A stretch of DNA of 64,000 nucleotides, taken from the NCBI GenBank assembly GCA_050084515.1, contig CM114271.1, positions 24,986,001-25,050,000 on the forward strand, written 5' to 3'. Positions 15,401 to 64,000 of the stretch are shown here, in pieces. The position numbers and the translations under genes were made by a program. Each line of letters begins with the position of its first letter. Position 1 is the stretch's first letter. The DNA is from Blasia pusilla (Eukaryota). The notes below the pieces were generated by a model, which was not told where the DNA came from, searched no databases, and worked only from the letters and a program-made list of their open reading frames with translations.

Positions 15401-15848
15401 AGGCTATATCATATACTTCATACTAGCGTTGAGAATTGAATTTGCTTCGGCGACATGTCACACACAAGCAGAGGATTCCATTCTAGCAGCCAAATACACG
15501 ATTACGGAGAAAGAGAGGGTCACAGCCACCATAAAGCTAGAACCCGAAATAGATGTTCGCGCACTGATAATCTGTTGAAGTTCCGATACATACCTGGTAG
15601 AAGCTTTGACTCTCATAGAAGATTTTTAGCATTTGCTCCCGCTTGTCATCCAAAGACAACCCTCGCTTTTTAGACTGCCAACAGCGAAGGAGCTCAAAGT
15701 CAAGATCCCCACATTTTCTCCATGGGAATTGCGAAGCTACGAATTTCGTTCTACAATTCGCAGTCCCATACCCCTAAAGCCAAAATAAGCGGGAAATTTC
15801 TACATGCAAATAAGAAAATAGCAGTAGTATACAGAATAGACTTGCCAT
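12463..15848 (-). CDS. MND1: Meiotic nuclear division protein 1 (HOP2 partner); exons 15848-15846, 15674-15594, 15245-15129, 14979-14941, 14331-14224, 13813-13751, 13484-13433, 13124-13080, 12957-12878, 12498-12463; about 207 aa
   Basis: Spliced protein [80 protein letters not shown]|...[20 protein letters not shown]...|[11 protein letters not shown], closely matching plant MND1. All phases are consistent. Confidence 0.95.
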
Positions 15849-16321
15849 CGGCCAAGACGAAAATATCGATGAGGCATACGGGCGAGGAGGCGAGGAGGCG
15901 AGACGGAAGGAGTACCACGGCAGGAGGCATTCACTTCACTGGATACGTGCAAGAGAAACAACGAGAACAAACCAGGACTTCCTCCAAATCCCGTGTGTTT
16001 GTCCCCCGCGCAATTTTAAACTTTCCGACCGATCGGAGGAGAGAGGTTATCACATGGGGTGAAAATTTACAAAACTAGTGTAAGTACGTGATATGGACGA
16101 ATTTTAATTAATTTTTTATAACTACGTTTTAATATTTGTAAATATCATTTTTATCAATTTTGAACCATTTTTTAGTTTAGAAAGCAAATGTTAAGAGGAA
16201 CGAGAGGAGTTTACTAAATAAGGGGCACACTTCAATTACTATGTAAGCCCTCTATTCACGGGTTTAAATTATCTTAGGTAATTAATTTTCAAATGCCCAT
16301 TGGTTCGTAAGACCTCTGCCA

Positions 16322-17375
16322 TCCTATTTCTATTATTGAAAGCGGAGCGGTTTTTAGTGGCAACACGGGAGCGCGTGGCATGATAGGGGAGGGTTAGGGG
16401 AAGAGGGCATTCAAATAATAATAATAGGTAAAGAAAACCCATAAGGATTTGAATGAAATAGAAAAATATTTTATTAGGTAATAAATATTTTATTTAATAT
16501 TATAATGGGTGATTGTAAATATTAATAAAATAGAATAATTTTGATAAAGAATAAAATTTTTAGAATTTGTGTCTTAATTCACATATTATGGAAAGGGAAA
16601 ATAAATTTTAATGGAAAAAGAGTAGATTAAATTTTATGGAAGGGTAAAATTATTTAGGGAATTAGGATTTCATTTAAATTTGAATGGAGTACTTAGAGGA
16701 GTGAAATGTTATTACTCTTCTAAGATTTTAGAAAATAAGAATTATATTTTAAATTTGAAATGAATGATGTGATTATTTTTAAAATTAATTTTATTAACTC
16801 ACATGTGATATTATGGGTAAGGAATATAAATTTGAATGGAAAAGGAAAATTAATTAAAATTAATTACGAAGTCTTTTAGTGAATGTGATTTTGGTGTAAA
16901 TAGTGGAAGGAGAAGAATAATTATTGTTGGAACTTTTAGGGAAGAATTTTACAATAATTCTTAAGGGGAGATGGATATTATTAGAGGTGATTTTCTTACT
17001 CTTTTAAGATTTATAAATATGGAAATTATACTTAAATTTTGAAATTAAATCTATTTTAAAATTTTAAGTATAATTTTAAAAAATATCATCGACGACCGTT
17101 TTTAAGCCCTTCTATTGAGGAAACCGTGTTAGACGTGCATGGCACATGCAACATCTATATTATTATGGGAGAGTACCTTCTTGATTTGCAAACACCTCTT
17201 TGTTTGACACGTGGTAACTAGGTAGCAAGAAAATGTTTCTCCTGCTACGGGCAACAAAAAAAAAGTTTGAATTTGTATGCAGCATCATTAATATCTTCCC
17301 TTCATAGGCTATACACTAACAAAAGCTCTTCAAACACTTTCTTATTTCCCGTGCATCACACGAGCACCTTACTAG
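16322..17375 (+). mobile_element. Non-autonomous Helitron (AT-rich family)
   Basis: A|TC start at 16321/16322, 3' hairpin cccgtgcatcacacgag then CTAG|T (17372-17376). The interior is homologous to 45190-45790, 55320-55870 and 62010-62745. Confidence 0.7.
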
Positions 17376-17537
17376 TTGGTTGAAAGTCAAAAGGATAGGA
17401 GTTTGCCAAATAAAAGGGTACTCTTCAATAATAATACATACTCAAATTAGCATTTAGGGATCCACAATTTTTCCGCACTTGAACCAGTAATTATTACTTC
17501 TCAATGATTCTTGCCTATCAACACTGCTCAAGGAGTA

Positions 17538-18030
17538 TGTCACGTCTCTTAGGATAGATTGTGAGAAGCGGAGGACAGGCTCAATAGGTTGAGGATGACC
17601 TGCTGAGGCCCCGGGAAAGATGAGAGAGCACCTTTCCCCTTCGTTTCGGCTCATTTGGAGCCATATAGAGAAACTCACTATTTGAGGTAAGTACCATTTT
17701 GAGTATGTGATCAACTTTCTATTTTTGGTAAGTGGCCATTGACCTCCTACATCAGGTCAAGAGCCAAGGAGGTGACTTGGGAGCATAGGTTACTATGGAG
17801 AGAGTTTGGGAGAGGGGAGGGGTATACCTCAAGGAGAGAGAGCTTGAGAGCTCATTCTCTCTTTGTTGAACCTCTTGGCATGAGGCGACAGAGCTATGGT
17901 CTTGCTTGCCTTGTGTGTGTAACCCAAGCCTCTCATTAGGAGAATGGATTTGGTTTGACATTGAGAGACACATGTGAGAGTGCACAGATGTGAGAACTAT
18001 AGTGTTGTGAGAGAGATTTGGTCTTATTTT
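17538..18030 (+). repeat. Terminal repeat B1 (LTR-like, contains a putative promoter)
   Basis: Homologous to 26186-26681, 30475-30895 (-), 38128-38640 (-) and 38828-39211. TATA-like gtatac at about 17822 and Inr-like CTCATTC at 17851. Confidence 0.85.
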
Positions 18031-18046
18031 ACAAAGAGAGAATGAG
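18031..18046 (+). promoter_or_regulatory. Putative self-priming primer-binding site
   Basis: ACAAAGAGAGAATGAG is the exact reverse complement of CTCATTCTCTCTTTGT at 17851-17866. No TGG-type tRNA PBS is present. Confidence 0.65.
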
Positions 18047-19449
18047 TGAGTGAGAGAGCTTCATGGGGGAGTTCGTTGGTCACTCGCTGGTTTTGCAGGT
18101 TGGGGATCGTATTCCCCGTTCAGCGGTTCATGGTAATGCTCACCGGAGCAAGAGCCGCTTACTTGTGATATTTCTTTTGCGGATTTTTCGTGTGGAAGAG
18201 TGGCGCGCGGAAGCGCTACCCAATTTTTGATAGGGATTGAGTATGGAGGCAGGTTGCCCCATGTCGGTGCTCTCGGGAGCACCATGTAGCTTGCGGATTT
18301 GTTTTCTCACATATTTTACATTTTCGTTGGGTGAAATCAGCGCGAAAGCACTATCGAATTATGTGTAGGAGAAAGAGACATTTGGCTTTACAACAGTCCC
18401 CGTCAGTTTTTACTGGAATGTCCGATTCCAAATATTTTTTGACGCTTTTGTAGATCGTGAAGCTGTGCACATTGTGCAACAAACAGTGCATAATTTGGAG
18501 TTGCAAAAAAGAAGTTATGGTCAATCTTGCAAAATTTCCATTGCTAGGCGATTTTTAGGGTTAAATTGTTCAAACCCTCAATCAGCCGTTAATGGTCAAC
18601 GGTCATTATCAACGATCAACCGTCGCCATCAACGGTCAACCATCATCTTCAATGGTCCACCGTCCATTGTCGGACGTTGCCGTCCCCTAGCGCTGCTCAG
18701 AGCTGCATTTGGCCGTTGTCCACCCTTTGGTTGCCATTGCCGCCATTACGGAGGGTCTTCCACGACCACCGTTGATTCTCTGACTTGTGCTGCCACCACG
18801 TACTTCGGTTTGGCCGCCACCGTCATCGTAGTTTCATCATCAACCAATGATGGCAGGTGACCTCGGGTTATGGTGTTTGAGTTTTCATTTCATGTTGCTA
18901 TATTGGGATTGGTAGCCGCTTGACGATGATCGAGTACCGTGCTGTGACGCCCGTAGCCGTAATGCACCACCGTTTGCGGCGCCGTTGTGCATGTGGCCGC
19001 ACCGCACCGCACCGCACCGTCTCGATCACGGAGCCGCTCCTTCACTAAGGTGCAGAGCATGTGAATTGCTGATTGAGGAGGGTATGCCACCGAGTGTCAT
19101 GCCGTTTGTAACTGTTCCGTGCCACGAGTGCCACACCGGACCGTTGGACCTGTATCGCACATCGAGGAGGTTTGAGTAGCGTCAGTACAAGAAGAGTACG
19201 ACTTGCTGATTGGAGGAGTTGTCTCACGACAGAGTTGGGGTTGAGATTTGCAATTGCCGAGGAGCGATATCGACATTATTGTCCAGTTACCCATTATGGT
19301 CTCTTACCCAGTGCGTGTGAGGGCTTTCCGGATATTGGGAAGTTATTTGGGATATTGGGTTTCGTGCTGATGCTAGTAGCATCCATAATGTATAGGTTTA
19401 GGGGACATAGACCTGTGTGGGATGTCCAGAGTTGAGGATGGTTTGTCGA

Positions 19450-19980
19450 TGCTTGGTGACGGAGGCTCAGGCTATCCAATCATGGTACGCGATGTTGGAC
19501 CGGACCCTACGGACACATGTGCGGGAGGCGGTGCTTCTTATGAACACCTCCCCTACGTTGAGAGATGTTTTTAGGACCGCCGAGAACATTGAGCACAACA
19601 TGGCGGAGGAGAGCGTAGCCACCATGGGTTCTCGGCGAGAGCAGTCACGATTTCCTACACCACCTATGCAGCAACGTGGACCCCGAGATAGGTTGACTTT
19701 GGTACCACGAGATGAGGGAGGTAATTGGGAGGCCGTGCCACAGAGACCTGCGCCTTCATATGCGGCTCAGCAGTATCCACCAATGATTACTTATTGGTCA
19801 TATGGTGGAGCCCATCATGAGCGTGATTGCACTCGTCAGGGTCATGGAAGTGTGCCTCAGCATGGAGGAGGAGATGGTGGTACACCAGGAGGTTATCAGT
19901 GTGACTATTGTCAGAGATATGGTCATACACACGCCAGGTGTTTCAATTTACATTCTGAGTTACGTCCGGACCGAGGGTGA
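19450..19980 (+). pseudogene. gag: Gag C-terminal part with two CCHC zinc knuckles
   Basis: CDYCQRYGHTHARC intact. The first knuckle is decayed here (YWSYGGAHHERDC) but has Cys at those positions in copy 2 near 35400-35450. Confidence 0.8.
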
Positions 19981-20773
19981 GAGAGGACACCAGAGCGAGT
20001 AGCCGGTCCGAGTGGGGCTAGAGATTGTAAACCAGGCGGTCCCGTTGGGGGACGAGGATCTGGAGTTGCCTGACAGGGTGGTGGAGCTGCCCGTGGAGGA
20101 GGTAGAGTCCCACCACCTACACGCGTTGAGGGAGACTCTGGGCGTGAGGCTACGATGGATGCTTAGATATATCAACTACATGAGCAGATTTCCGCTATGG
20201 CATTGAGATTACCGGATCGGAATCTATGGCATCAACATCATATGGAGCAGCCAGAGATATGGAGGATCCTGGTTGGATGTGCGGGGTTGCCCAGATGGAG
20301 GCCGCCCAGTTGTGACGCATGGAGTAGCCGCAAAGTTGGATCCACAGCAAGGGGAAGCCACGAAATAGACTAGGCTTCCTGGATCTTTCACGTTGTCTGA
20401 AGCGATGAGGATCCCATCGATGGGTCCTAATCAGAGTTCTTGGAGAGTTGGTGATGTTTTTGGTGTGTTGGCATGAAGGGCAATGGGAGAAGTGATTGCG
20501 ATGACTCCCATTGTTGATGCTCAAGAGGGGCATGTGTCGAGCACGTTGTTGGGGGTGGCCACCGTTGTGTACCGTGCTCCTTTATTTTTTGCTTCCGATG
20601 TTATGATGTTGGGAGGTACGCACGCCGAGGTTTTTCAGCTGGCCGCTATGTGAACATGGAGTTGGAGTTCTTTATCATATTCAGAGGTGATTGTAGAGGA
20701 GGTGATGGACTTGCCCTTTGAGCGGATGCTGGGGCCGTCCACGTAAGATTCATGGCAAGCTGCGGCTACTAGG

Positions 20774-21250
20774 ATGGCGGAGATGCCTGCTAGACCCGCG
20801 ATAGAGCGTGCCATGGTTTCTCTTGGTGTTGTGTTGCTGGATAACCGAGGAGAGGTCTTCCAGTTGGTGAGTCTCGGAGGTAGAGCTTTTAGTCCACAAC
20901 GCGTCTTGTTGGATTCAGGAGCGCAACCCCTGATGTTGGGGAAAGCGTCATTCAGAGGATTGGGCTTGACGAAAGCGGATGTGGAGCGTTGTCCATTCCG
21001 GGTACAGACATCCTTGGGTGGAGCAAGTGCCACATAGTATATCACCTGACAGGAGGTCGTGGTGAGGATTCACCCGGGACATCCTACAGTTGAGTCCGTG
21101 GTGCGAGCCGAGGTGATAGTGACTGATGTAGAGTCCTACGACGTCTTGGTTGGTGGAGCAGTGTTATACCCAATGGGATTTTCCCTGGATTATTGGGAGG
21201 AGTCAGCATCCAATAGACCAAGATGGCAGTCAAGTGATGTGCGCCTTAGC
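20774..21250 (+). pseudogene. Retropepsin aspartic protease
   Basis: RVLLDSGAQPLMLG active-site motif and YDVLVGGAVL C-terminal motif; internal stops. Confidence 0.85.
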
Positions 21251-21618
21251 TCATTACCCGTTCGATTCACATGTGTCGAGATGGAGCGTCGGCCATGAGA
21301 GATCGCGACCTTAGCAGTATTTAGCAGTGCCATCACTTGGCCTAGTGATTTGATTGAGGGACATGTCCATGCAGAGGATACTCCCGTTCCTGACATTTCT
21401 ATGGAGAGGAGTGTCATGGTACCCGCATCAGTCTGTGGAGGAGAGGTGCCGCTTTGGGGATTGACTGAGGATCTTCGAGGCTTAGCCACTAAGCATGTGC
21501 AGATCGCGTGGAGCGAGACCCTTGCACCAGAGTGTGATGGATCAGAGGAACCCCAAGTAGGCAGGAGTGCTGCTATGACCCCTTTGGACACCACCCTTAT
21601 TGTGTGGTGCATCCCAAA

Positions 21619-22490
21619 GAAGGGTATTCGGGTGTTGGATCTCTTTGGAGGGATCAGCACTGGGTTAGTTGTTGTTTTGCACGCTGGAGTGCGCGTGCAA
21701 CAGTACCTGTATGTGGAGATTGATGATGTTGTGAGGCGCGCTTCACTTCACCATGTGGCACTGTTACACCTCCATTTTCCTGACTTGTTGTCTGCGTCCG
21801 CCATTCAGGGTTACCAAAGTTCCCTACCGAGGGACATTTCATTGTTGGGGGCGCAAGACTTGGAGCGGGTAGGGACCATAGACTTGGTCATTGTTGGTTG
21901 CCCGTGTTAGGGCCAATCGAGTGCTAGACGAGGTAGCATGTTAGCTGACACTCAATCTAGGTTTTTTGGGAGATGATGCGGATCTTGCAACATTTACAAG
22001 AGCATCAGTCTCCAGCATGGATCGACCCGGCGGTGTATTGTTAGATGCAGCGAGTGTGGGTTCACGAGCACATCGCCCGCGTCTTTGGTGGACCAACTTG
22101 GTACCACATGAGGTATTGCGAAGGGCTTATGCAAGAGTGGAGCGTCCCTCCGATTTGTTGGTGGATTGTATATTGGATCCGGGTTGTCAATCACAGGCAG
22201 TGAGGCACGATGATCGACTACCGTTGACTGTCATCAATAGGATTGGCATGCCAAAAGCCGCCTTTCCCACATTGGTGAGTTTTCCCGCTTCCTATGCATT
22301 CAAGGAGGCAAGACCTGGCTTGGTTTGGGATGACCAGGTATAGAGGTTGGTGGAGCCCAACACCAATAAGCGAGAGCGAGCGATGGGATTCCCCATAGGA
22401 GTGACGGCAGTACCGTCACTATCGGAGGCATCACGACGTCATGTCTTGGGTCAGGTGATGGACCCAAACTGCTTGACATGGATTTTCAGC
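21619..22490 (+). pseudogene. DNMT3-like C5-cytosine DNA methyltransferase domain inside pol
   Basis: Motif I IRVLDLFGGISTGL, motif II YLYVEID, motif IV IDLVIVGCPC, motif VIII AHRPRLWWTN, motifs IX-X ERAMGFPIGVT...SRRHVLGQVMD. Motif VI is deleted in this copy but present, mutated, in copies 2 and 3. Confidence 0.9.
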
Positions 22491-22802
22491 TTAGGAGTAG
22501 TTGAGCAACATTGTTTGAGGATGCAACAGATCAAAGTTGTTGCGTTTGCGAGCCCCATGCCTATCGAGACGGTTGAGGCAGTGGCTGGGGGCAAGATCCG
22601 AGGAGATCGACACACCAGGGGTGATCGGGAGAGACACCCTTGGACTTCCTAAGATGTTTTGCAAGTACGCCAGGAGATGATAGCCACAACATTGAGCGTG
22701 GTTCTAAGTACTGCACGTGGAGATGGGAGTTCTATTGTCCGAGACGGGGTTGCACCATAGCAACCACCGACATCCGCGTCGAAGAGTCCTATCGTAGTCA
22801 CG

Positions 22803-24250
22803 ATGGAGACTTGGGAGCCAGATATGGGGCCTAAGTTGATAGGAGGAGAGCGGCATCGGATACACCAGTTCCTTAGGAGTTATAGGAGATGTTTTGCATT
22901 TAGTATGCATGATTTAGGTACACTGAAGGGTCTAGGGATCCGCATTGAGTTGTCGAGTGACACGCCGATCTTCCGACAACCCTACAGGTATAGTGACATG
23001 GAGAGGGCTCTAATTTAGAGTAGGATCCAGGACTTGGTTGGAGCAGGACTAGTGGAGATGTTGCATGGAGAGTATGCATCTGCTATTGTCATGCCCGCCA
23101 AGAAGGATGTGCATGGCAACTAGACAGATAGGCAAATGTGTGGAGATTACCGACCTATCAACCGGTAGACAAAGGCCGATAGGTATGCCATGCCCACCCC
23201 TAAGGAGATCTTTGATACAATTGGGCATGCAAAGGTCTTCAGTTCATTGGATTTGCAAGCCGGATACCATCAGTTGCCTATCAGATTGGAGGACAGGAAA
23301 AAGACGGCATTTTGGGGCATCGATCCTCAGGGGAAGGATTGTTTGTACCAATGGCGGTTCTTACCATTCGGGTTAAAGAACGCTCCGGCTTAGTTTCAAT
23401 GGGTCATGGATAGGATCTTGGCAGGTCTAGATTTTGCTAGGTATTATATTGATGACATCGTAGTCTTTAGCGCCACGGTTAAGGAGCATGAGGGACATCT
23501 AGAGGAGGTGTTTCGACAATTGCAGTTACATGGGCTAAAGCTACATCCAGGCAAGTGCAAGTTCTTCTACAACCAGATTGAGTACTTGGGTCATACGATA
23601 TACCCTGGGGGCCTTGGTGTGCAACAGATGAAGGTAGAGGCTATTTCACGCATTCCATGCCCTATAGATGTGAGTCGAGTTCATGCATTCATGGGATTGG
23701 CAAACTTCTATCGACGATATGTCAAGCGTTTCAGTTTGATTGCAAAGCCGTTGACCTTGATGACCAAGGTGGATCAGGAGTGGCACCGGGGAGATGAGCA
23801 AGAGAGAGCATTTCAGATGCTCAAGGACAGATTGACGTTCGCGCCCATATTGAGGAGACCAATCAGGGGTCGTACTTTCCACTTGCATATTGATTGGAGC
23901 ATGTTGGGGCTTGGAGCCGTGCTCATCCAGCATGACGATGATGGTAGAGAGTTCGTGGTGGCTTAGGCTAGTCGCTCAAACAATGATGCAGAGGCAAAGT
24001 ATAGCTCGTACAAGGGTGAGTGCTTGGCTCCAGTATGGGTTGTCGCACATTTCAGATGTTATCTATTTGGCAATCCCTTTACCATCATTACTGATCATGA
24101 GCCATTTTAGAGGTTGATTGAGTCCAAAAAGCTTACGGGGAAGCTTGCGAGGTGGGCTCTTTTGTTGCTCCAGGAGTATGATTTTCAGGTGGTACATAGA
24201 CATGGGATGCTCAACGAGGATGCAAATGGGCTGAGTCGTAACCCATGCCC
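22803..24250 (+). pseudogene. pol: Reverse transcriptase and RNase H
   Basis: FRQPYRYS, MCGDYRPIN, FSSLDLQAGYHQ, LPFGLKNAPA, YIDDIVVFS; RNase H LHIDWSMLGLGAVL...YSSYKGECLA...IITDH. Confidence 0.95.
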
Positions 24251-24338
24251 GAGTCAGCGACATGCGACTGAAGCTCGATGGCATGGAGAGAGTGATGAGG
24301 AGTTAGTGCCAGGATGACACGCGTCAGCCTATTTAGGC

Positions 24339-25875
24339 TTGTTGACTATGGAGAGCCAGAGTGTGGAGACTTTGATAGCGAGGTCTGATGGAGAGTCCTT
24401 GGATCCTGAGGCCAGTGAGGAGACGATAGGTGGCCGAGATATTCATGATGATGGAGTAGTCTTGGAGTATCTGCGTACTAGCAGCGTTGCGAGCACAGTG
24501 GGTGCTAGAGAGCGGGATCGGGTCCTACAGAGGACCAGACAGTTCCGCTGGGAGGGGACACATGTGTTGCGAGTGTGGGAGGATGGTAGAGTGCATGTAG
24601 TGCCTCATCCTTCACAGAGAGCATGTTTGGTACGTCATGCCCACGAGGAGTTGGGTCATTTTGGAGTGAAGCGGACATATAGCTTGCTCCAGATTCAGTA
24701 TTGGTGGCAAGGCATACAGACTGACGTTCAGAAATTTGTTGCTAGATGCATGGTGTGTGATCAAGTCCGAGCATCGTTCAATGCTCCAACTCCACAGTTG
24801 CATCCACTTCCAATCATGGGTTTAGGTTATAGATGGAGTTTGGATTTTGCAGGATCTTTGCCTTTGAGGGAGCGCTATAGTCGTTATGTGTTGGTGATGG
24901 TCGAGCGCTTCTCGAAGTGGATAGAGTTGGTTGCATTTCCTGACAAAGCGAGTGAGGGAGTAGCGTATGCCTTCCTAGATCGAGTGTTGAGTCATTATGG
25001 CGCACCTACTGAGATGTTGATAGACCAGGATACAGAGTTCCGTGGGGAGTTTCAAGCCTTGTGTGATCGGGCAATGACCGACCACCGCACTACTTCACGA
25101 GATCATCCTGAGGCGGATGGACTAGCGGAGCGAGGTTGTGGAGACGATGAAGAGAGGACTACACAAGTATGGCTTACAGAGAGATCACCTAGGATATTGG
25201 GACCTTCAATTGCCGTGGTTGGCGATGGGATACAAATTCAACAAGCAGGCATCCTTAGCGTCTTTCTCACCGTACTTGTTGCTTTATGGCCGAGAGCCAG
25301 ATTTATCATTCATCGAGAATATCGGTGAGGTGTTGAACCTTGATGACCATGATGTATGGATGCGAGCATGTTCTGAGAGGTCTGCGTTGTTTCGGAGAGT
25401 AATGCCCATGGCATTTGAGAACTTGGCGATTACGCAACATCGAGATACGTTGAGGTATGCGACTATTCGAGGAGGTGGTTATCGATCTACTATCCGGAGG
25501 TTTCATCAAGAAGACTATGTCTACTTGCATCAGACGACATCCACAATGTTGGATGTGACTGCAGGGCACACCATCTTGAGAGTGCGTGAGGTTTTGCCAT
25601 CCGTCGTTCTCTTATTGGAGGGACGTGATGGTATGGTTTGGAAGGATCATGTGCGTAATTGTGCGCCATGTCATCTTCCGAACATTGAGGGTACAATCGA
25701 TCCGAGCTTAGCAATAGTTCCTGCAGGCTTGCGGTGTATGTTGTGTGGTTCTGCCCGTAGTGCAGCCACTATGCTAGTCTATGATGGGTGTTCAAGAGGA
25801 TGGCATATGACATGTTTGACGCCACCTCTCACTAGGGTTCTTCAGGGATCATGGATGTGTCCCAGATGTACATAG
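24339..25875 (+). pseudogene. DDE integrase with C-terminal PHD finger (25735-25872)
   Basis: HHCC (HAHEELGH...CMVC), D (WSLDFAG), D (LIDQDTEF), E (GLAER), frameshift near 25135. Ends CMLCGSARSAATMLVYDGCSRGWHMTCLTPPLTRVLQGSWMCPRC, a C4HC3 pattern with one C>Y change. Confidence 0.92.
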
Positions 25876-26055
25876 AGTAGGTAGTTGTACATTCCGACTT
25901 GTGTCTGTGACATGGATGACAAGAAGGTGACTAACGATGGGGCCACATGAGAACCTGGCCTTCTTGCTCTTAGTGTCTGAGAGATGTATGTCATGGAAGG
26001 TAGGGATAGATGGCTATTTGGAGTTAGAGGGATCTAACCACCAGCTAGGGGAGCA

Positions 26056-26183
26056 ATTAGAGATATTTTGGTACTTTTTGTCTTGTTGTTTGGATGCCAT
26101 GAGTTAGCATGGGATTGTGCGTGTTTGTGTGTGTGTTCGGTGACAGCGATGTATGTTGTGTAGTGATGTGTATACGCACGATA
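26056..26183 (+). repeat. Repeat A, preceded by a short purine tract (26047-26053) and ending CACGATA
   Basis: Homologous to 30350-30474 (-), which ends CACGACA against unrelated flank. Confidence 0.8.
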
Positions 26184-26185
26184 AT

Positions 26186-26681
26186 TATCACATCTCTTAG
26201 GATAGATTATTGAGATATAGTAGAGCGCCTTCGTGAGTAGCAGAGGACAAGATCAATAGATTGAGGATAACTTGTTGAGGCCCTGGGAAACCTGAGAGAG
26301 CACCTTTCCCCTTCGTTTCGGCTCATTTGGAGCCATGTTGAGAAACTTACTATTTTAGGTAAGTACTATTTTGAGTATGTGATCAACTTATATTTTTGGT
26401 AAGTGGCCCTTGACCTCCTACATCAAGTCAAGAGCCAAGGAGATGACTTGGGAGCATAGGTTACCATGGAGAGAGCTTGGGAGAGGGGAGGGGTATACCT
26501 CTAGGAGAGAGAGAGCTTGAGAGCTCATTCTCTCTTTGTTGAACCTCTTGGCATGAGGCAGCGGAGCTATGGTCTTACTTTCCTTGTGTGTGTAATCCAA
26601 GCCTCTCATTAGGAGAGTGGGTTTGGTTTGACATTGAGAGACAAATATGAGAGTGCACACATGTGATAACTATAGTGTTGT
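26186..26681 (+). repeat. Repeat B2 of copy 1, truncated about 22 bp short of the B end
   Basis: Direct repeat of 17538-18008 sharing subfamily-diagnostic bases (gtatgtgatcaact, gacctcctacatca). Joined to repeat A through a 2-nt AT spacer. Confidence 0.85.
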
Positions 26682-28613
26682 TAATCATAAATCCCTAAAA
26701 TGAAAATACATGTTGGTTAATTTGTATATTAGATTTTATTTTGTATTTTGTGACATGGGTACCTTACTAGTCCTACTTGATATGAGTAGAAACTTAGTAT
26801 GAAACATGGTATTTAAGATAGGTGTAAGAGAGCTTTGAATCCATTTGGGTTCACATTTTACCGGCCATAATTATTTTCTGCAGTATTAAGCCTTTTTTAC
26901 TTATCCATGTCCTCCCCTGCTTAAATTATGTCATGGATCAGCAAGAAATTGTTTTTAAGAAATTATACCACACATGAGAACCACGAGCAACCCTATTCAT
27001 ATTAGTATTAGTGGGTAGAGAATGACTTCCTCCTTCCCCTAAACCACTACTAAGACTAAAGGTTGATTCTTCAAGGTTATGGAAATCATTGGTCCTTCCA
27101 TATGGCTAGATGAATATAGGCTAAAGGCAAAGAGACTCAATGGAATAACATAAAGGGTGTTGGAGAAGTGTTCTACACTCGATTGTCAACTCCTCTTCGC
27201 TAGACCCGTGAAGAGTTGTTTTGGGTTTAGGACTCCAACTAGCCAAATGCACAATTGTGCATTTGGCAAGTTAGACCCAAGATTACTTGGATGAGTCTCA
27301 AGAATTTTCTATTTAAAATTTCCATGATATACCCTCTAGTCATTCTTAGTAACTAAATACTACTATGTTATGCTACATATGCCCTCTTTAGTTAAATATA
27401 GTTGTAATTTAGTCTTATTGGACTCCACTTGTAAGTGACTTAGTGCTTAAAGGACCACATTCCTTTAGTGTTGCATTGAACCCATCCAAGTGATGAGGTG
27501 TAGGTTTTCTATTCCAGCCTTAGGGGGGCTTCCAAAGTGCAATGGGCCTTCTTTTGTTGGGTGTCCAAATATATGCCCCTCTCTTCATTTGGGTGTTGCA
27601 TATTATGCTGCCATATGGGAAAAAAATTAGTGTGAATTCTCAAAACTAAATGACATTTTATATGAAAATGAAGAAAGTGAAACTAAGTTCATAACATACC
27701 AACTCCCACCATATGTCCCAATTAGCAACTTTGAAAATATATCCCAATTAACACTTCATCACAAGTACTTCTATGGAGACGGACATCGTTCATGAGTATG
27801 GACTCATGAGGGGTATTTTTACAAACCAACCCCACACCAATTGTGCCAAAAGCTTAGAATTTGATGCTAGTGGCAATAAGCCCTTAAGAAAGAATAGACT
27901 TTGTATATCTTGTTGCACTCAACCTTCACAAGAGGAGGTGCAGAATAATGTTCACTATGACTTTGACTTTGTTGAAGGAAGTAAATATGAGAATGTACTA
28001 AAGAGAACGTACCTCTCAATTTTGCCTTGATTCTATTACTGGGTGAAATCTATGGATTCTTTATTGCATACGACATATGAGTCTCATTTGGCTACAATCA
28101 CAAGTTGAGGTTGAGATTGAATTGCCATGGATGAGTGTGGGAGGATATTCTAGATTTGAGTGTTGGAGTTTTCTTTCTTCACGTATCATGGATTCCATCC
28201 ATTTCTTTTACAGACTGCGCATGGTATTACTTGTTGAAATGCAAGGCTAATTGACTACATATATCACAAGAGTGTCAACTTATAATAATTGCAACTAGGG
28301 AAAATAAAATTCTAGTTTTTATATTAAGTATACTTCTATCTTTTTCATCTAGATCCAATTCCTCGTGTCACATTGTTATAGTTAGAAGTGAAAGCTAATC
28401 TTGATAAGGTCTTTAGGATGGCATCTAGAAAAGAACATGGTAATTTTTCCACACTAATACTCAATTCCTAGTACCCTTCCACTCAACTTGTGATTATTAT
28501 AAGTTCTAGAATTTTTATTGGTTTGAAGAGTAAAAAAAAGTCTAGTTCATATTGTGGAAGCTAAAGTGCTTTATGTGCCTTAGGGTAAGCAAAAGGTACT
28601 ACTTCATCTACTA

Positions 28614-28833: not shown

Positions 28834-30349
28834 AATAATTTAGCATGTCTAGTATGTCATACTAGATTTCAAAATTTAATGTAGCTTAATTTTTTTATGA
28901 AACAAAGAAAAAAAAGCATAAGCTTAATCAATCATATTTTCTCTTTTATGGAAACCTTTCCTCTACCATCTTGGCCTACAAGTTACTCTCCTTTAAAACA
29001 CCATTTTATTTGGAGGTGTTTTATAACCTAGATACATGTGGATGTTACCTTAAAAATTTTCAGCCTATGTACGTGGATATCTGATTTTTATTTTTATTTT
29101 CCTTATAGTAATACTTTTTTTCTTCTTATTTATCTTTGAGATTTTGGAGTGAGGGACAACTCTAGTTTATTGCTTTCTTAGAATTTTTCTACGAGGAGAA
29201 TTGTTTGGAATTAAAATCACCTCTTAGGTGCTTGAGGTGGAACAAGATAGATTAGGAATATGTTGTTCAAGACTTTTGTGTTATGTTTTAGGAGGGTTTT
29301 TCTTTTCTTTTCTCTCGACTACCACCAACTTAGACTTTTCTCACAATAATGCCTTGCCTTTCTAGTACAAACCCTTGCATGATATTTATTATTTATGTCA
29401 TTTGGTGTGGTTTGTTATTTTTTCAATCCACTTTTGGCAACTTGAGATAGATCTTCCTTTTACCATATTGTTGAAGGTAATGAACATTACATGCCTTATG
29501 CTTTATTTGTGTAAAAAGAAGGGTCTTAGTTATGCGGTAACAACCATGCGTTCAATAATTGAAATTATATTGAATTGGGGATTTTTTGGGCAAGGAGGGT
29601 GAGATTTTTAATCAGCAAAACTCCCTACCGCCAGTGTAGAGAAGAGTTAAAAAAAGAGAGGCATATGCTTAGAAGGAATGAAAGAAAGCGTTTAATACTT
29701 AGTAATTCTCAAATTCAATGCAAGAGGCTTTCTTGGTGGGAGGCAGTAGATCTCTACAAGACTTAAGTATTGTAGACAAAGTGTATTTTATGAACCCAAG
29801 ATGGATATGAACCTTTGTGACAAATTTAATAAACACTATTGTGAGGATTGTCAATGAAGTTTTGAGAGAGGAGGGGAGGAAATGTTGGCAAATGGATTGC
29901 CAATATATGTTGGGCTAGGGAAATATCTTTCTTCTAGAGATTGAAGTAGAGAATTGCAAGAAATAGATTGTAGAAATTACGAGATTGGTGACGGGATATC
30001 TTGACCTAATCACTCTAAATTTATTTGTTGATAAAGTCATAGAGTGGGAATAATGGTTTTATTTTTAGGCAATGAGACCTTCATATTGGTTGTGTAATTT
30101 GTCAAAGTATAACTTGGAATTGGTGAGGAAGAATATACTTCATTTTTTGGATTTTATTGATAAGCTAGAAGGGGCAAACATGAGGAAATATTTTGTTATT
30201 GAAGGAGTAGGAGGGATGTAGTTTCCTTTTTTTGGTGCAAATTCTCGAGACCAAAACTTATGAAATTGCTCGGAGACTCATTTGCATATGTTGCCAATTT
30301 GTTTAAAGATCATGGATATGGGAATGGAGATATAGTTCCTAGTTTAGCT

Positions 30350-30895
30350 TGTCGTGTGCATACACATATCTACGCAACATACATCGTTGTCAACGAACAT
30401 ACACAAAAAAACACGATCCCATGCTAACTCATGACATCCAAACAACGGACAAGAAGTACCAAAATATCTCTAATAAAACAATGAAGTCTCTCATCAACAT
30501 CTCACACCAAGCTCTCCATGCTGCACTCTCACATGTCTCTCTCAATATCAAACCAAACCCACTCACCTAATGAGAGGCTTGGGTTACACTCACAAGGCAA
30601 GGGACCATAGCTCCTCTGCCTCGTGCCAAGAGGTTCAACAAAGAGAGAATGACCTCAAGCTCTCTCTCTCTGGGAGATATACCCCCTTCGCTCTCCCAAG
30701 CTCTCTCCTCGATAACCTATGCTCGCAAGTCACCTCCTTGGCTCTTGACGTGCTGTAGCGAATCAAGGGATACTTCCTAAATTGGAAAGTCAACTATACT
30801 CCAAATAGAAACTTACTCAAAATAGTAAGTTTCTCTATATGGCTCCAAATGAGTCGAAACATGCTCTCTCACGTTTCCCGTGGCCTTAGTAGGTC
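30350..30895 (-). repeat. B-A repeat block (B 30895-30475 fused to A 30474-30350); probable 3' terminus of Gypsy copy 2
   Basis: The minus strand reads B...cattgtttta|ttagagatattttgg...CACGACA and then unrelated flank. Same subfamily as 38128-38640. Confidence 0.8.
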
Positions 30896-30899
30896 AAGG

Positions 30900-31570
30900 A
30901 TTTGGAAGTTGCTCTATTGTCTTAGAAGATCTATGCTAAGAGTATTTATATAGCCTTGCAAGATTCATTTAGAGAGAATAATCTTATTGGTACAATGAAA
31001 ATCGTGAATCCCTTTCACATGCCGTCTAGACAAGTAGGACTCATAAGTTGGGGATGTAAGGATATAGAAGAGTTGTTTGCACATTTTGGATCTGAGTTAC
31101 CACTGAAGGGGCATTTGCAACCTTCTATCATAAATTTTGTTGATGTCAAATGGGAGTTCCAATCCTTCAAGTTGATGGCGATAATTGAGTGGAAGGATCG
31201 TAATTTCAAAGATCTGTGGGTAATGGTGAATTGGAGTCCATGTTTACAATGCAAGTTTGCAAACTTATTGGTGTTGGCTAATGTTATGATGGTTCAATGT
31301 GGAAGCATTGCAATTTGTGAGAGAGCATCCTCAATTCAGAACATGATAAAGAGTAAGTGTAGGAATAGACTAGGTAGTAAGCATTAAGATGTTCTTCTCA
31401 GAATTTCTTTAGAAGGCCCTTACTAACTATGGGGATAGGCTTGTTGAACCTCTAGTTTTGTGGAATCTTTAGTTCTCTAGAAACTTTAGATACATGTGTG
31501 CTAATCCAGAAAGATATCTTTCTCCTCAAGTCGAAGTTAAAGGAGTTACACCTTCTATTGACGTGCCTTC
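30900..31570 (+). pseudogene. hAT transposase C-terminal dimerization domain fragment (ZNF862-like)
   Basis: FANLLVLANVMMVQCGSIAICERASSIQNMIKSKCRNRLGSKH*DVLLRISLEGP matches the hAT S..CER.FS....K...RNRL motif. Confidence 0.8.
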
Positions 31571-31737
31571 CTAAAATGATTTATGCATTCTTGTTTAGAT
31601 TTAGAGCCCCTTCACAATATTTGGGATCCTTACAACTCAAAAAATTGTGAAGGGGAAAAATCCTTGGCTCCCAATTGGTTGGGAGGCATGGCCAAGTTCA
31701 ACTCTTGACAAGGATCCCCTTATTAAATGTGAAATCA

Positions 31738-34700
31738 AGCACCTAACAAAATTTAGACCTGCCAAGATCTTATCCATGACCCTCTGAAACTCAAGTGGGG
31801 CATTCTTTAGCCCAAATAGTAAGAACCGCCACTGGTACAAACAATCCTTCCCGTCAAGATCGATGCCCCAAAATGCCGTCTTCTGCCTGTCCTCCAATTT
31901 GATAGGTAGTTGATGGTATCCGGCTCAAAGATCTAGCGAACTGAAGACCTTTGCATGCCCAATAGCATCAAAGATCTCCTCACGGGTGGGCATGGCATAC
32001 ATATTGGACTTTTTCTGCCGATTGATAGGTCGGTAATCTCCACACATTTGCCTATCTCTCCAGTTGCCATGCACATCCTTCTTGGCGGGCATGATAGTGG
32101 CAGATGCATATTCTCCATACGACATCTCTACTAGTCCTTCTCCAACCAAGTCCTGGCTCCTACTATGAATCAGAGCCCTCTCCATATCACTGTACCTGTA
32201 GGGTCGTCAAAAGATCGACATGTCACTTGCCAACTCAATGCGGATCCCACGACCCTTCAGCGTACCAAAATCATGCATGCTAAATGCAAAACAACTCCTA
32301 TGACTTATGAGGAACTGGTGTATCCGGCGTCGCTCTGCTCTTGTCAACTTAGGGCCCATATATGACTCCCAATTCTCCATCTTGACTATGGTAGGACTCT
32401 CCGGTGCGGGTGTCGGTGGTTGCTATGGTGCAACCCCATCTCGGACAATAGAACTCGGCTGCTCCCTTGTAGACAACTGCAAACTCTAATCTCCACGTGC
32501 ACTGCCTAGAACCACGCTCGATGCTATGGCTACCATCTCCTGGCATACCTGCAAAACATCCCAATAAGTCCAAGGGTATCTCTCCCGATAACCCCTAGTG
32601 TGTCAATCTCCTCGGGTCTCGCCCCTAGCCACTGCCTCAACTGTCTTGGTAGGCATGGGGCTCACCAACGTAAAAGTTATGATCTGTTGTATCCTCAAAC
32701 GATGCTCCTTAGCCACTCCTCAGCTAAAAATCCATGTCAAGCAGTCTAGGTCCATCGCCTGACCCAAGACATAACGTCGTGATGCCTCTGAGAGTGATGG
32801 TACTGCCGTCACTCCTGTGGGGAATTCCATCGCTCGCTCATCGGCATTGGGCTCCACCGACTGCTCTACTTGGTCATCCCTAACTAAGCTAGGTATGGTC
32901 TCCTTGAATGCATAGGAAGCGGGAAAACTCACCAATGTGGGAAAGGCTACTCGTGGCATGCCAATCTTGTTGACCACAGTCAACAACCGTCGATCATCGT
33001 GCCTCACTGCCTGTGATCGATGACCTGGATTGAGAATACAATCCACCAACAAATCAGAGGGGCACTCCACTCTAACATACGCCCTCCGCAAAACCTCATG
33101 TGGCACGAAGTTGGTCCACCAAAGATGCGGGCGATGTGCTCATGAACCTACACTCGCCGTATCCAACAACACTATCGGGCCGATCCGTGCGCGCGCTTGA
33201 TGTGCACTTGTTACTACATGGGACCTTGAATCGCCCAAAATTGGTATATTCCCCAGAATGTATGATGGAGAATGAGACTAATGCTCCTCTAAGTGTCGCA
33301 AGATCTGCATCATCTCCCAAAACAACCTAGACCAAGAGTCAGCTAATCCGCTACCTCGTCCAACACTTGATTGGCCATGACGCGGCCAATCAGCAATGAC
33401 CAAGTCTATGGTCCCTACCCACTCCAAGTCTTGCGCCCCTAACAATGACATTTTCCTCGGTAGGAAACTCTGTTAAACCTGGATGGCGGACGTAAACAAC
33501 AAGTCGGGAAATCGGAGGTGTAATTGCGCCACATGGTGAAGTGAAGCGCGCCTTGCAACATCATCAATCTCAACATAAAGGTACTGTTGCACGTGCACTC
33601 CTGCCTGCTAAAGAGCAGCTAAGCCAGTGCTGACCCCCCCCCAAAGAGATCCATAGTAGCATCCCTGGCTACCTCGGGTTCCCCTAACTCGTCACGCTCT
33701 GGTGCAAATGCCTCATTCCACGCCGTCTGCAAATGCTCATTAGATAAACGTCGAGGCTCCTCACTCGAGCCCCACAACGGCACCTCTCCTCCACAAATGA
33801 TGTGGCTACCATAACACTCCTCTCCCTAGAAGTGTCAGGCGTGGGGATGTCCTCTGCATGGACATGCCCCTCAATCAAATCAGAAGGCCACGTGATGGCG
33901 CTGCTAAAGTCTCCATCTCTCATGGCCGTCGCTCAATCACTCCACTTGTGAATCAAACGGGTAATGAACAAAGTTTTCCATCACGAGACTACCCTTCTGG
34001 TTTGTAGGACACTCACTCCTCCCAGTAATCTAGGGAAAACCCCATCGGGTACAACATTGCTCCACCAACCAAGACATCGTAGGACTCTGCATCGGTCAGT
34101 ATCGCCTTGGCTCACATCACACTAATCTGTAGGATGTCCCGGGAAAAGCCTCACCATGACCTTCTGTCGGTTGATATACTGTGTGGTACTTACTCCACCC
34201 AAGGATGTCTCCATATGGAATGGACAACGCTCCACATCAGCTCTCGTCAAGCCCAATCCTCTGAATGCCGCTTTCCCCAACATCAGGGGTTGCGCTCCCA
34301 AATAATAGGACATGCTGCGGACTAAAAAATCTACCTCTTGGACTCACCAAGTGGAAGACCTCTCCCCAGTTATCCAGCAACACAACACTAGAAGAAGCCA
34401 TGGCACGCTCTATCGCGGGTCTAGCGGGCATCTCCGCCATCCTAGCAGTCGCCGCCTGCCATGAATCTGACGGGGACGGCCCAAGCATAAGCTTCAAGGG
34501 CAGGTCCATCACATCCTCTGCAATCACTCATGAGTATGATGCAGGAACACCAACTCTACGCTCACATAGCATAGCGGCCAGACAAAAAACCTTGGCGGGC
34601 ATACCTCCCAATGTCATAACATCCGAAGCAGAAAATAAAGGAGCACGGTACACAATACTTGCCGCCCCCAACAACATGCTCGACACATGCTCCTCTTAAG

Positions 34701-37700: not shown

Positions 37701-38640
37701 TGAGATCTACGACAATGTCTCATTTTTTTTCATTCAACTTTCCCATAAAAACCGACAGGAATTGTCATGCAACCCTTCAAATGTGCACTCTTAGGACAAA
37801 ATTGGCAGCGCTTCCGCGCTAATTTCTTCCACAAAAATTCAAACCTGTAAAATCACAAACCAATGAGCTACTTGGTGCTCCCGAGAGCACTTGCATGGGG
37901 AAATCCGCCCCCAAACTTCATCTCTAAAGAAATTTGGGCAGCACTTCCGCGCGCCACTTTTCCACACAAAAAATCGACAATGGAAAATAGAAAAATAAAT
38001 AGCGCTTGCTCTGATGAGCACTCCCATGAGCCGCTGAACGGGGAACACTATCCCCAACTTGCACCAACAGCAAGTAACCAGCGAGCTCCTCCATTGAAGC
38101 TATCTCACCCTCTCATTCTCTCTCTGTAAAACAATGAAATCTCTTATCAACATCTCACACCAAGCTCTCCATACTGCACTCTGATATGTCTCTCTCAATG
38201 TCAAACCAAACCCACTCTCCTAATGAGAGGCTTGGGTTACACACACAAGGTAAGAGACCATAGCTCCGCCGCCTCGTGCCAAGAGGTTCAACAAAGAGAG
38301 AATGAGCTCTCAAGCTCTCTCTCTTGGAGATATATCACGTTCCCTCCGAAGCTCTCTTCTCAGTAACCTATGCTCGCATGTCATCTCCTTGGCTATTCAC
38401 CTGCTGTAGCGGGTCAAGGGCCACTTCCCAAAGTGGAGAGTCAACTATACTCCAACTAGAAACTTATCCGAAATAGTAAGTTTTTTGATATGGCTCCAAA
38501 TGAGCCAAAAAAAAGGGGAAACCTACTCTCTCAAGTTACCCGTGGCCTTAGCAAGTCCTCCTTGACCTCCTAAGACTGTCTTCTAGTATCTCCAAAGGCG
38601 CTCTACTAGATCTCGCCTTTCTATCCTAAAAGTCGTGACA
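31738..38640 (-). mobile_element. Ty3/Gypsy copy 2 (decayed): B1 38640-38128, leader, gag about 36500-35250, protease about 34450-33980, DNMT about 33650-32720, RT truncated at about 31738
   Basis: Colinear with copy 1 on the opposite strand; starts TGTCACG at 38640. DLFGGVSTGL, YLYVEIDD, IDLVIADWP, SYILGNI, HRPHLWWTN, VLGQAMD; RT motifs MCGDYRPIN and FGLKNAP. Confidence 0.93.
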
Positions 38641-62746: not shown

Positions 62747-64000
62747 TTAGCTCTTTGCCCGTTCGATTCACGAGCGGAGAGATCGAGAAAAAGCCATGAG
62801 AGATGGCGACATTGGTAGTATTTAGCAGCGCAAGGCGCATTTCACTTCAACATATGGCGCAGTTACGCCTCCGTTCTCCCGACTTGTTGTCTGCGTCCGC
62901 CGTATAGACGTACTAGAGTTTCCTACCAAGGCATGCTTCGTTGCTAGGGGCACATGATTTGGTTCGGGTAGGGACCATCGATTTGGTTATCGCTGGTTGG
63001 CCATGTGAGGGCCAATCGAGTGTTGAACGAGGTAGCGGGTTGGCTGACACTCGATCCAGACTGTTTTGGGAGATGATGAGGATCTTGCGAGACTTGCACG
63101 AGCGTTAGTCCCATTCTCCAACGTACATTCTGAAGAATGTGTCGATTTGGATGATTCGAGGTCCCATATGTGGACAAGTGCACATCATGTGCACGAATGG
63201 ATCGGCCCAGCAGTGTTGTTGGATGCGGCGAGTGAAGGTTCACAAGCACATGGCCAGTGTCTATGATGGATCAACTTGGTGCCAAATGAGGTGTTGTGGA
63301 GGGCGTATGCAAGAGTGGAGCGCCCCTCCCATTTGTTGGTGGCCTCTATTATGGATCATGGTCGTCAATCACAAGCAATGACATATGATGATCCACCGTC
63401 ATTGATCGTGGTCAATAGGATTGGGATGCCACGCGTAGCCTTTCCCACATTTTTTAGTTGTCCTGCTTCCTATGCATACAAGGAGGCTAGACCGTGCTTG
63501 GTTTGGGATAACCAGGTACAGCGATTGGTGGAGCCCAACAGCGATGAGCGAGAACAAGCGATGGGATTTCCCATGGGAGTGACGGTGATACCGTCCGTAT
63601 TGGAGGCAAGAAATGGACTTGAATTGCTTGACGTGGATCATCGGCTTAGGAGTGGGTGAGCAGCGTCATTTGAGATTGCGATAAGTCTCAGGTGTTGCGT
63701 TGGTGAGTCCCACGCCTACCAAGATGGTTGAGGGCAGTGGCTAGGGGTGATCGGTAGAGACACCCTTGGACTTCTTGGGATGTTTTGCAGGTACGCCGAG
63801 AGATCATAGCCACAACATTGTGCGTGGTTCCAAGTAGTGCAGGTGGAGGAGATGAGATTTTGCACTTGGTTATAGGGGATCAGTTGAGTCATGTTGTTTG
63901 AGATGGGGTTGCACCGTAGCAACCACCGATACCTGCCCCGAATAGTCCTACTATAGTCATGATGGAGACTTGGGAGCTAGATTTGGGCCCTAAGATGATA
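62747..64000 (+). mobile_element. Gypsy copy 3, internal fragment with DNMT motifs IV-IX; runs off the window end. An inverted piece lies at 62329-62412
   Basis: IDLVIAGWPCEGQSS, LFWEMMRIL, TYILKNV, EPNSDEREQAMGFPMGVT; colinear with 21246-22840 apart from deletions. Confidence 0.9.

Follow-up and report, generated by a model that had tools for sequence, protein, structure and literature searches.

Evidence for a DNMT3-like cytosine methyltransferase domain in the pol region of Ty3/Gypsy retrotransposon copies of Blasia pusilla

We have analyzed a window of 64,000 nucleotides from the genome of Blasia pusilla (assembly GCA_050084515.1, contig CM114271.1, positions 24,986,001 to 25,050,000), in which an earlier sequence-only reading had pointed to a cytosine methyltransferase (MT) domain inside a Gypsy retrotransposon. 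Our analysis indicates that this feature is very probably the methyltransferase domain of a Ty3/Gypsy element of the Gypsy-DNMT3 kind, with the order gag (with a CCHC zinc knuckle), protease (PR), DNMT3-like MT, reverse transcriptase (RT), RNase H (RH), integrase (INT) and PHD finger, and that the window holds three old inactivated insertions of it. The comparison of the window with itself found these three copies of one long terminal repeat (LTR) Gypsy element, here called c1, c2 and c3, with a G+C content near 0.50 vs 0.33-0.41 in their surroundings. As had been claimed, a C5-MTase domain sits at the same place in all three; tblastn with a near-intact relative found in a metagenome contig (L001) locates the stretches. 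The copies and their MT domains are the following (window coordinates):

17538-26684, + strand: copy c1, bounded by direct LTRs
21635..22496, + strand: MT pseudogene of c1 (tblastn segments 21635-21967 and 21954-22496)
38640 to about 30490, - strand: copy c2, with LTRs at both ends
33646-32717, - strand: MT pseudogene of c2, in one frame by tblastn with the L001 domain
about 62745 to the end of the window, + strand: copy c3, which ends inside the MT-RT linker at the window edge
62824..63651, + strand: MT pseudogene of c3 (tblastn segments 62824-63147, 63147-63608 and 63607-63651)

That the domain is a DNMT3-like, non-permuted C5 methyltransferase is supported by sequence, profile and fold. The c2 domain, searched as a read-through with X at the stops, gave 30 matches to the PDB sequences at expectation values (E) up to 10. 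Twenty-nine of them were DNMT3A, DNMT3B or DNMT3C (best E 2.8e-5) and the 30th was an unrelated protein with an E of 1.8. Residues 6-186 of c2 align to residues 11-171 of DNMT3A and residues 275-314 to 237-276, i.e., the alignment is collinear from motif I to motif X. When a family profile built from 15 relatives with the MT before the RT was run against the PDB, DNMT3A (5.9e-14), DNMT3B (1.3e-11) and DNMT3C (4.3e-11) came ahead of tobacco DRM (1.6e-5), HhaI (2.2e-4), Arabidopsis DRM2 (2.1e-3) and DNMT2 (2.5e-3). The DRM matches were confined to the region of motif IV, and neither DNMT1 nor CMT (chromomethylase) appeared among the PDB matches of the profile at E up to 10. An intact relative (P0004) was modeled with AlphaFold2 (mean predicted local distance difference test score, pLDDT, 87.6; predicted template modeling score, pTM, 0.87), and all the Foldseek matches of the model listed down to rank 50 were DNMT3A, DNMT3B or DNMT3C, with a best E of 6.4e-20, template modeling (TM) scores of 0.79-0.83 relative to the target for catalytic-domain chains and 20-23% identity. 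The family also has the motif order of C5 methyltransferases: motif I (FxGxG, cofactor binding), the cysteine of motif IV, ENV in motif VI and RxR in motif VIII. The earlier assignment to DNMT3, rather than to MET1/CMT or the permuted DRM, is therefore upheld by the collinear alignment with DNMT3A, by the ranking of the profile matches and by fold matches that are DNMT3A/B/C only. Neither PWWP nor ADD domains were detected by Pfam in the ORFs (open reading frames) of c1 or in 26 relatives.

The Gypsy nature of the element is best seen in c1, in which direct LTRs surround gag, PR, RT, RNase H and integrase in the order of Ty3/Gypsy elements. The domains of c1 were placed by Pfam on the open frames and by tblastn with L001:

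17538..18011, + strand: 5' LTR, starting with TGTCAC, 3' end approximate (start pattern and alignment of five LTRs)
19456..19965, + strand: gag with a CCHC zinc knuckle (36% identity to L001 gag by tblastn; CCHC in the translation of the ORF 19411-19980)
20771..21250, + strand: aspartic protease, LLDSGAQP (50.6% identity to the L001 protease by tblastn; two in-frame stops)
23019..23672, + strand: RT, YIDD (80% amino acid identity to the L001 RT; three stops; RVT_1 E 2.6e-13 on the ORF 23394-23966)
23793..24245, + strand: RNase H (75% identity to L001; RT_RNaseH_2 E 1.5e-12)
24606..25004, + strand: integrase, zinc-binding H2C2 and core (Integrase_H2C2 E 2.3e-16, rve E 2.3e-10; ORF 24318-25328)
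25735..25869, + strand: PHD finger at the C-terminal end of the integrase region (PF00628, E 7e-9, 36 bits vs a cut-off of 24)
26186..26684, + strand: 3' LTR (self-comparison and alignment of five LTRs)

LTRs, CCHC gag, DSG protease, RT, RNase H and integrase were thus all found, and the position of the MT between protease and RT is the same in c1 and in its relatives. The integrase is free of stops and 82% identical to that of L001 by tblastn. The protease remains below the Pfam cut-off (Asp_protease_2, with an E of only 0.079), and Pfam found no chromodomain after the integrase of c1, the place occupied by the PHD finger. The two LTRs of c1 are 91.6% identical over 450 nt (match at 26233-26681); the alignment of five LTRs did not resolve the target-site duplication, the primer-binding site or the exact 3' end of the LTR of c1.

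The search of 5.8 billion proteins with c2 provided 69 relatives of similar length (best E 4.4e-112, 59% identity) and 16 longer ones. The named relatives come from Sphagnum troendelagicum, S. tenellum, S. jensenii, S. fallax, Calypogeia fissa, Marchantia polymorpha, M. paleacea and Riccia sorocarpa, the closest being those of liverworts and Sphagnum. Among metagenome contigs, 117 stretches out of 169 pattern matches encode a relative, and 80 loci were kept. In these relatives the domain is fused to pol. The frame 321-6809 of L001 runs continuously through gag-PR-MT-RT-RH-INT with two stops only, the Marchantia protein P0077 is a PR-MT-RT-RH polyprotein, the cluster P0268 contains several uninterrupted polyproteins of 2703 amino acids with the order MT-RT-RH-INT-PHD, and Closterium proteins also carry the domain in frame with pol. 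Natural relatives retain PC(Q) and ENV in frame with pol. One might still imagine that a host DNMT3 fragment or a bacterial methylase came to lie beside a transposon by an accident of insertion or assembly, for which only the general frequency of nested insertions in the window speaks. This explanation can practically be dismissed: the position is the same in three copies that share 79-85% DNA identity across the domain junctions, and relatives from several genomes have the domain and pol in a common reading frame. In the case of a bacterial methylase, bacterial enzymes match the profile about 10 orders of magnitude worse than DNMT3A does.

The copies in the window are themselves dead. All of them had been described as pseudogenized, and we found stops, frameshifts or deletions in each domain. 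In c1 the two tblastn segments contain two in-frame stops, the stretch between them a further stop and two frameshifts, and the ENV region has been lost. There are five in-frame stops and a deletion of two codons in c2, and four stops, two frameshifts and a loss of about 130 N-terminal codons in c3. The motifs given before from merged copies are present overall, but several had to be corrected copy by copy. Motif I reads DLFGGISTG in c1 and SLWGGVSTG in c2, and motif II is YVEID in both; an internal deletion has removed the two motifs from c3. In c1 motif IV is GCPC with a stop directly after it, in c2 it is DWPRH (with the cysteine lost) and in c3 GWPCE. Motif VI (ENV) is deleted in c1 and reads GNI in c2 and YILKNV in c3, and motif VIII is HRPRLWWTN in c1, HRPHLWWTN in c2 and broken in c3. 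ERAMGFP and RR.VLGQ are present, the latter as RRHVLGQ in c1. Since the catalytic cysteine and the glutamate of ENV occur together in none of the copies, all three domains are pseudogenes. The check with the C5-MTase profile (PF00145, cut-off 22 bits) was accordingly divided: the local copies fell short (11.0 bits for c2 and 10.4 for the N-terminal part of c1, with no hit for the C-terminal part of c1 or for three separate ORF fragments of this copy), whereas the five relatives that were scanned all passed with 28.7-42.7 bits. The local miss is due to the decay of c1 and c2 and is not a trait of the family.

In order to estimate the constraint on the domain we calculated pairwise dN/dS (omega) by the Nei-Gojobori method (NG86), all against all, for copies in which 80% or more of the respective domain was covered, leaving out stop codons and binning the pairs by dS; comparisons with L001 alone were saturated for RT, RNase H and gag, and all-against-all pairs were therefore used. 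For the MT, omega was 0.92 at dS below 0.1 (93 pairs), 0.60 at 0.1-0.3 (2040 pairs), 0.53 at 0.3-0.6 (73 pairs) and 0.18 at 1-2 (63 pairs). In this last bin the other domains gave 0.12 (RT), 0.13 (RNase H), 0.26 (integrase), 0.30 (protease) and 0.32 (gag). Omega decreases with divergence in every domain, a trend that is expected if the differences between young pairs are mainly due to neutral decay and old pairs evolved as active elements. As a rough estimate, with dS near saturation, the constraint on the methyltransferase is above that on protease and gag and somewhat below that on RT; the domain does not evolve neutrally next to a constrained RT (0.18 vs 0.12). In the alignment of the relatives, the count is 43 of 45 for the catalytic cysteine, for E-N in motif VI and for RxR in motif VIII alike, i.e., 18/18 rows with the MT before the RT and 25/27 rows with the MT after RNase H. 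These data point, again roughly, to long-term purifying selection on the domain across the family. A decaying passenger, functionless throughout the family, is very improbable. It would account for the broken copies (3/3 in the window and 42 of the 44 metagenome copies with the domain in one piece) and for the omega of 0.92 between the closest pairs, but RT, RNase H and PR of the same copies decay likewise, and because they show the same pattern the decay is post-insertion. Besides, the deep omega of 0.18 is below that of PR (0.30) and gag (0.32), the catalytic residues persist in 43 of the 45 rows and 347 clusters (50% identity) still show the domain at E<=1e-30.

The family extends over the green lineage. 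Among the representatives of clusters at 50% identity, the profile matched 5205 at E<=1e-3, 1135 at 1e-10 and 347 at 1e-30; the matches listed were all of the transposon type. Pfam detected integrase in 19 of 21 long matches, RT and RNase H in 18, a PHD finger in 16 and PF00145 (at E 1e-3) in 11. The order of the domains, determined by phmmer in proteins of at least 600 residues, was of two kinds, with the MT before the RT in 28 and between RNase H and integrase in 108. The named members of the first kind are from bryophytes and from Closterium sp. NIES-53 and NIES-54, those of the second from Scenedesmus sp. PABB004 (KAF8056149.1), Haematococcus lacustris and Pleodorina starrii. Searching with the RT-RNase H region of L001, the nearest full-length relatives had 43-70% identity, nearly all with a PHD finger and often with PF00145, and a chromodomain element of Closterium NIES-68 had 36%. 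A quick tree search with RT-RNase H (54 rows) placed the elements of both domain orders, together with three PHD-only elements, in one group against chromovirus-type and animal Gypsy elements (Shimodaira-Hasegawa-like approximate likelihood ratio test, SH-aLRT, 100). The element lies outside the branch of the Closterium chromovirus and Chara, the elements whose MT follows RNase H make up a single clade, and L001 and Marchantia form a pair (99). In the MT tree (46 rows) the two orders are split by a single branch (99), and c2 and L001 form a pair (100). The PHD-only members, without methyltransferase, are P0347 (Klebsormidium nitens), P0267 and P0358 (Tetrabaena socialis), and they are either ancestral forms or secondary losses. 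P0347, with just 183 residues between RNase H and integrase, sides with the MT-before-RT elements in the RT-RNase H tree, although the branches joining them are weakly supported (82-87).

The simplest reading of this distribution is that an ancestral Gypsy lineage with a PHD finger captured the domain once and that the domain then changed its place within pol. That the two orders go back to two separate captures of a host DNMT3 seems fairly unlikely to us, but there are several observations that it would explain. The domain sits at different junctions in the two groups, the MT tree parts them on one branch (host DNMT3, absent from the tree, could fall between them), PHD-only relatives without the domain occur on both sides (P0347, P0267, P0358) and recurrent captures are documented in the accessible part of de Mendoza et al., 2018 (PMC5890265; all that is said here of this work refers to that part). 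Nevertheless, the profile made from MT-before-RT domains matches the MT-after-RNase-H domains at E 1e-52 to 1e-77, vs 5.9e-14 for DNMT3A, and both orders share a clade of RT and INT-PHD backbones as well as motif variants (GW[EP]CQ, AHRxRxxWTN and EPxxxERExxMG[FY]).

We have also examined sequencing reads, one genomic run (X18) and three stranded RNA runs that carry the label of the window species, aligned to positions 15500-28000 at 90% likeness. The genomic depth was 0 to 0.67 in the five flank bins (mean about 0.4), 280-990 in the internal bins of c1 and 1725 in the LTR bin. These values (280-1700 vs about 0.4, or roughly 10^2-10^3 times the depth of the flanks) agree with the amplified lineage that had been proposed and correspond, as an order of magnitude only, to several hundred to a few thousand related copies. 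Most of the genomic reads (46783 of 50999) were 90-95% like c1. The RNA depth over the whole element was 1-76 with first mates on the - strand and mostly <4 on the other, i.e., these are sense transcripts if the first mate reads the opposite strand, as is usual in stranded libraries. Since 90-92% of the RNA reads are only 90-95% like c1, their source is other copies. At sites where at least 30% of the genomic reads differ from c1, the difference was A-to-G or T-to-C relative to c1 in 454 out of 770, and c1 has therefore decayed mainly by G-to-A and C-to-T. The comparison of the three copies gave 126 singleton changes of the type C-to-T or G-to-A among 268, vs 65 in the reverse direction, with a CpG observed/expected ratio of 0.71-0.77.

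The presence of the PHD finger next to the integrase gives some hints about what the methyltransferase may do. Its PDB matches were CHD4, KDM5B, KDM5A, PHF12, DPF3, ATXR5, PHF21A and AIRE, with E of 2e-12 to 6e-8. The PHD fingers of CHD4, KDM5B and others bind histone H3 unmethylated at K4. A joint mechanism, in which the MT borne by Pol methylates the new copy and the PHD finger steers, is possible, and we advance it tentatively, as somewhat short of an even chance. The domain would be made within Pol and stay with RT and integrase. Using S-adenosylmethionine, it would methylate cytosines de novo, either in the newly made double-stranded cDNA or in the insertion just formed. The PHD finger would tether the complex to promoter-free chromatin without H3K4 methylation and so steer integration or methylation, a tethering modeled on that of the chromodomains in chromoviruses. 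The new copy would then arrive methylated already, and host enzymes would maintain the mark. Self-methylation of the cDNA has been proposed by de Mendoza et al. (PMC5890265).

The enzyme might instead act in trans on host chromatin, blurring the distinction between gene and transposon, or on RNA, or be a structural part of Pol without a substrate. We consider this less probable than the joint mechanism, and on the unlikely side. Genome-wide effects and RNA methylation have been raised as options, and no DNA methylation was obtained in yeast with the K. nitens domain (PMC5890265). Further, Glu replaces Pro before the catalytic cysteine in 31 of 45 relatives, and the PHD finger could recruit the protein to host nucleosomes generally. 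On the other hand, the catalytic cysteine, ENV and RxR are retained family-wide, the closest folds are de novo DNA methyltransferases bound to CpG DNA, and the tRNA enzyme DNMT2 lies far behind in the profile search (2.5e-3 vs 5.9e-14).

Several points weigh against a Gypsy-DNMT3 element with a working enzyme and have to be set beside the evidence given above. All of c1, c2 and c3 are dead and under the Pfam cut-off, and the domain is stop-free in just 2 of the 44 metagenome copies in which it aligned without a break over 90% or more of its length. The glutamate before the catalytic cysteine (GWECQ in the 31 relatives out of 45) is unusual among C5 methyltransferases and could mean altered chemistry; the branch of the window itself (L001 and c3) has Pro at this place. 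The omega values are rough, since the deepest bin has dS values close to saturation and NG86 is blind to CpG hypermutability, and the trees contained no host plant DNMT3 or DRM sequences. The copy ratio rests on a flank depth that we estimate at only about five reads, and the RNA reads may stem from defective or read-through copies. The role of the PHD finger as a reader of H3 unmethylated at K4 is a lead, drawn from what its PDB neighbors bind. Finally, methylation activity is so far only a prediction for every streptophyte Gypsy-DNMT3, and the authors of the yeast assay with the K. nitens domain, in which no methylation was seen, describe it as inconclusive (PMC5890265). Taken in its broadest form, the scenario would be that of a single Gypsy lineage predating the chlorophyte/streptophyte split, with the DNMT3-like MT and an H3K4me0-type PHD finger as a writer-reader pair, present in a land plant with about a thousand copies, transcribed as a family and methylating its own new copies. 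All of this together appears distinctly unlikely to us.

The other two copies are less complete than c1. The features of c2 in addition to its MT are:

38143..38640, - strand: 5' LTR of c2, starting at 38640 (85% identity to 30474-30895)
31721..32170, - strand: N-terminal part of the RT of c2 (self-comparison and tblastn with L001)
30490..30895, - strand: 3' LTR of c2; after it, at 30474-30349, comes the 130-nt piece that in c1 lies before the 3' LTR

There is in c2 no counterpart of c1 23442-26055 (the remaining RT, RNase H, integrase and PHD finger), and the stretch that replaces this absent part contains, on the opposite strand, an ORF of 153 amino acids (30926-31387, +) without Pfam family. 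An extra LTR copy at 38828-39211 (+), 82% identical to the c1 LTR and with no internal sequence after it, lies head to head with the 5' LTR of c2 at a distance of 187 nt. A second repeat family (16441-17050, 45045-45772 and 61941-62744; 70-77% identity, partly inverted) borders c1 and c3, and c3 appears 5'-truncated beside the repeat at 61941-62744. Genomic reads join the LTR to the 130-nt piece found before the 3' LTR of c1 (26056-26185), with 160 reads for the joint from 18030 to 26056 and 140 reads for the joint from 26634 back to 26056 (a step of 579 nt). These joints point to internally deleted elements or to tandem arrays of upstream piece plus LTR elsewhere in the genome, and the order LTR-then-piece is also that of the 3' end of c2 (30349-30895).

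Other features of the window were recorded as well. Just upstream of c1 there is a spliced transcript (15500-15916), apparently on the - strand, with an intron-like skip at 15675-15845 seen in 13-26 RNA reads per run (CT..GC on the + strand, i.e., GC..AG on the - strand) and a minor splice variant that skips 15670-15845. An ORF of 836 amino acids at 46909-49419 (-) has a CpG observed/expected ratio of 0.92, above that of the transposon copies, and gave no Pfam family and no Atlas match >=0.9. Three consecutive ORFs at 58273-60914 (+) code for 242, 187 and 221 amino acids; the second and third are without Pfam family, and the first weakly resembles protein kinases (E 1.9e-4, 21.4 bits vs a cut-off of 31.7). 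Within an A+T-rich stretch there is, at 54164-54701, a tandem duplication of a 268-nt unit with 92% identity.

Cytosine methylation is the main route by which plants silence their transposons, and a transposon that brings its own de novo methyltransferase reverses the logic of this silencing. Elements of this kind are already published. KnitGypsy-Dnmt3 of Klebsormidium nitens is a Gypsy-DNMT3 element (PMC5890265), and the statement of the sequence-only reading that retrotransposon-borne DNMTs were described in dinoflagellates and charophytes by de Mendoza et al., 2018 agrees with that source. In the accessible parts of two further texts there is mention of 'streptophytes (Gypsy-DNMT3)' (bioRxiv 10.64898/2026.05.21.726589) and of retrotransposons 'in streptophytes' with an embedded DNMT3 (PMC12344493). 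PHD fingers, according to what is accessible of PMC8557442 and PMC9940879, are common accessory domains of Chlamydomonas transposons, and they are frequent in transposon fusions generally (bioRxiv 10.1101/2021.11.30.470311). A DNMT-bearing Gypsy in bryophytes and the pairing of DNMT3 with PHD were not found in open-access full texts, whose figures or supplements may contain some. What is added here is the land-plant hosts, the scale, the expression, the pairing with the PHD finger and the shifted position of the domain.

The published streptophyte case was that of one alga with few copies and an enzyme without signal in yeast. In the annotations of Marchantia, Sphagnum, Calypogeia and Riccia, related elements figure as hypothetical proteins, and Closterium has such elements as well. 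The domain family comprises at least 347 clusters at 50% identity, and the position in pol differs between the chlorophyte and streptophyte branches. This offers tractable land-plant models, Marchantia above all, for the role of transposon-encoded methylation. The 'DNMT3 genes' counted in bryophyte annotations may include transposon copies. If the broadest scenario outlined above, which we hold to be distinctly unlikely, were true, bryophyte transposons would owe part of their de novo methylation to themselves and not to the host.

Among the known systems, the animal DNMT3A, DNMT3B and DNMT3C are the best match in sequence and fold, with collinear motifs I to X and the catalytic PC(Q), ENV and RxR in common. 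The differences are the low identity (20-23%), the chain of the element without PWWP or ADD, its PHD finger being elsewhere in the polyprotein, and the EC of most element relatives where the animal enzymes have PC. The closest published element is KnitGypsy-Dnmt3, likewise a non-permuted DNMT3-related domain in the Pol frame of a streptophyte LTR Gypsy with the catalytic residues kept, and with a Ka/Ks <0.2 (PMC5890265) where this family has 0.18 at deep divergence. It is described as having 'fewer copies' in K. nitens (PMC5890265), whereas the copy number here is far higher and the host is a land plant. Its repeats are DIRS-like according to the legend (PMC5890265) and those of c1 are ordinary direct LTRs, a comparison made by description only; P0347, the sole named K. 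nitens relative that we found, is RT-RH-INT-PHD without methyltransferase. SymbioDIRS-Dnmt3 of Symbiodinium also has a DNMT3-type domain in a retrotransposon Pol, with de novo CG methylation shown in yeast, but it is a DIRS element with a tyrosine recombinase, found in dinoflagellates and an independent capture according to its authors (PMC5890265). Gypsy-7a_cRei of Chlamydomonas reinhardtii (PMC9940879), likened by description only, is a green-lineage Gypsy with a PHD among its pol domains; the accessible part of its description lists the PHD before INT and no methyltransferase. The chromoviruses carry a chromatin-reader module at the same C-terminal end of the integrase, but there it is a chromodomain and in this element a PHD finger (PF00628). 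The chlorophyte polyproteins with the order RT-RH-MT-INT-PHD (KAF8056149.1, Haematococcus lacustris and Pleodorina starrii) share with the element the RT-RNase H clade, a homologous MT and the PHD finger after the integrase, and differ in having the MT between RNase H and integrase, whereas here it lies between protease and RT.

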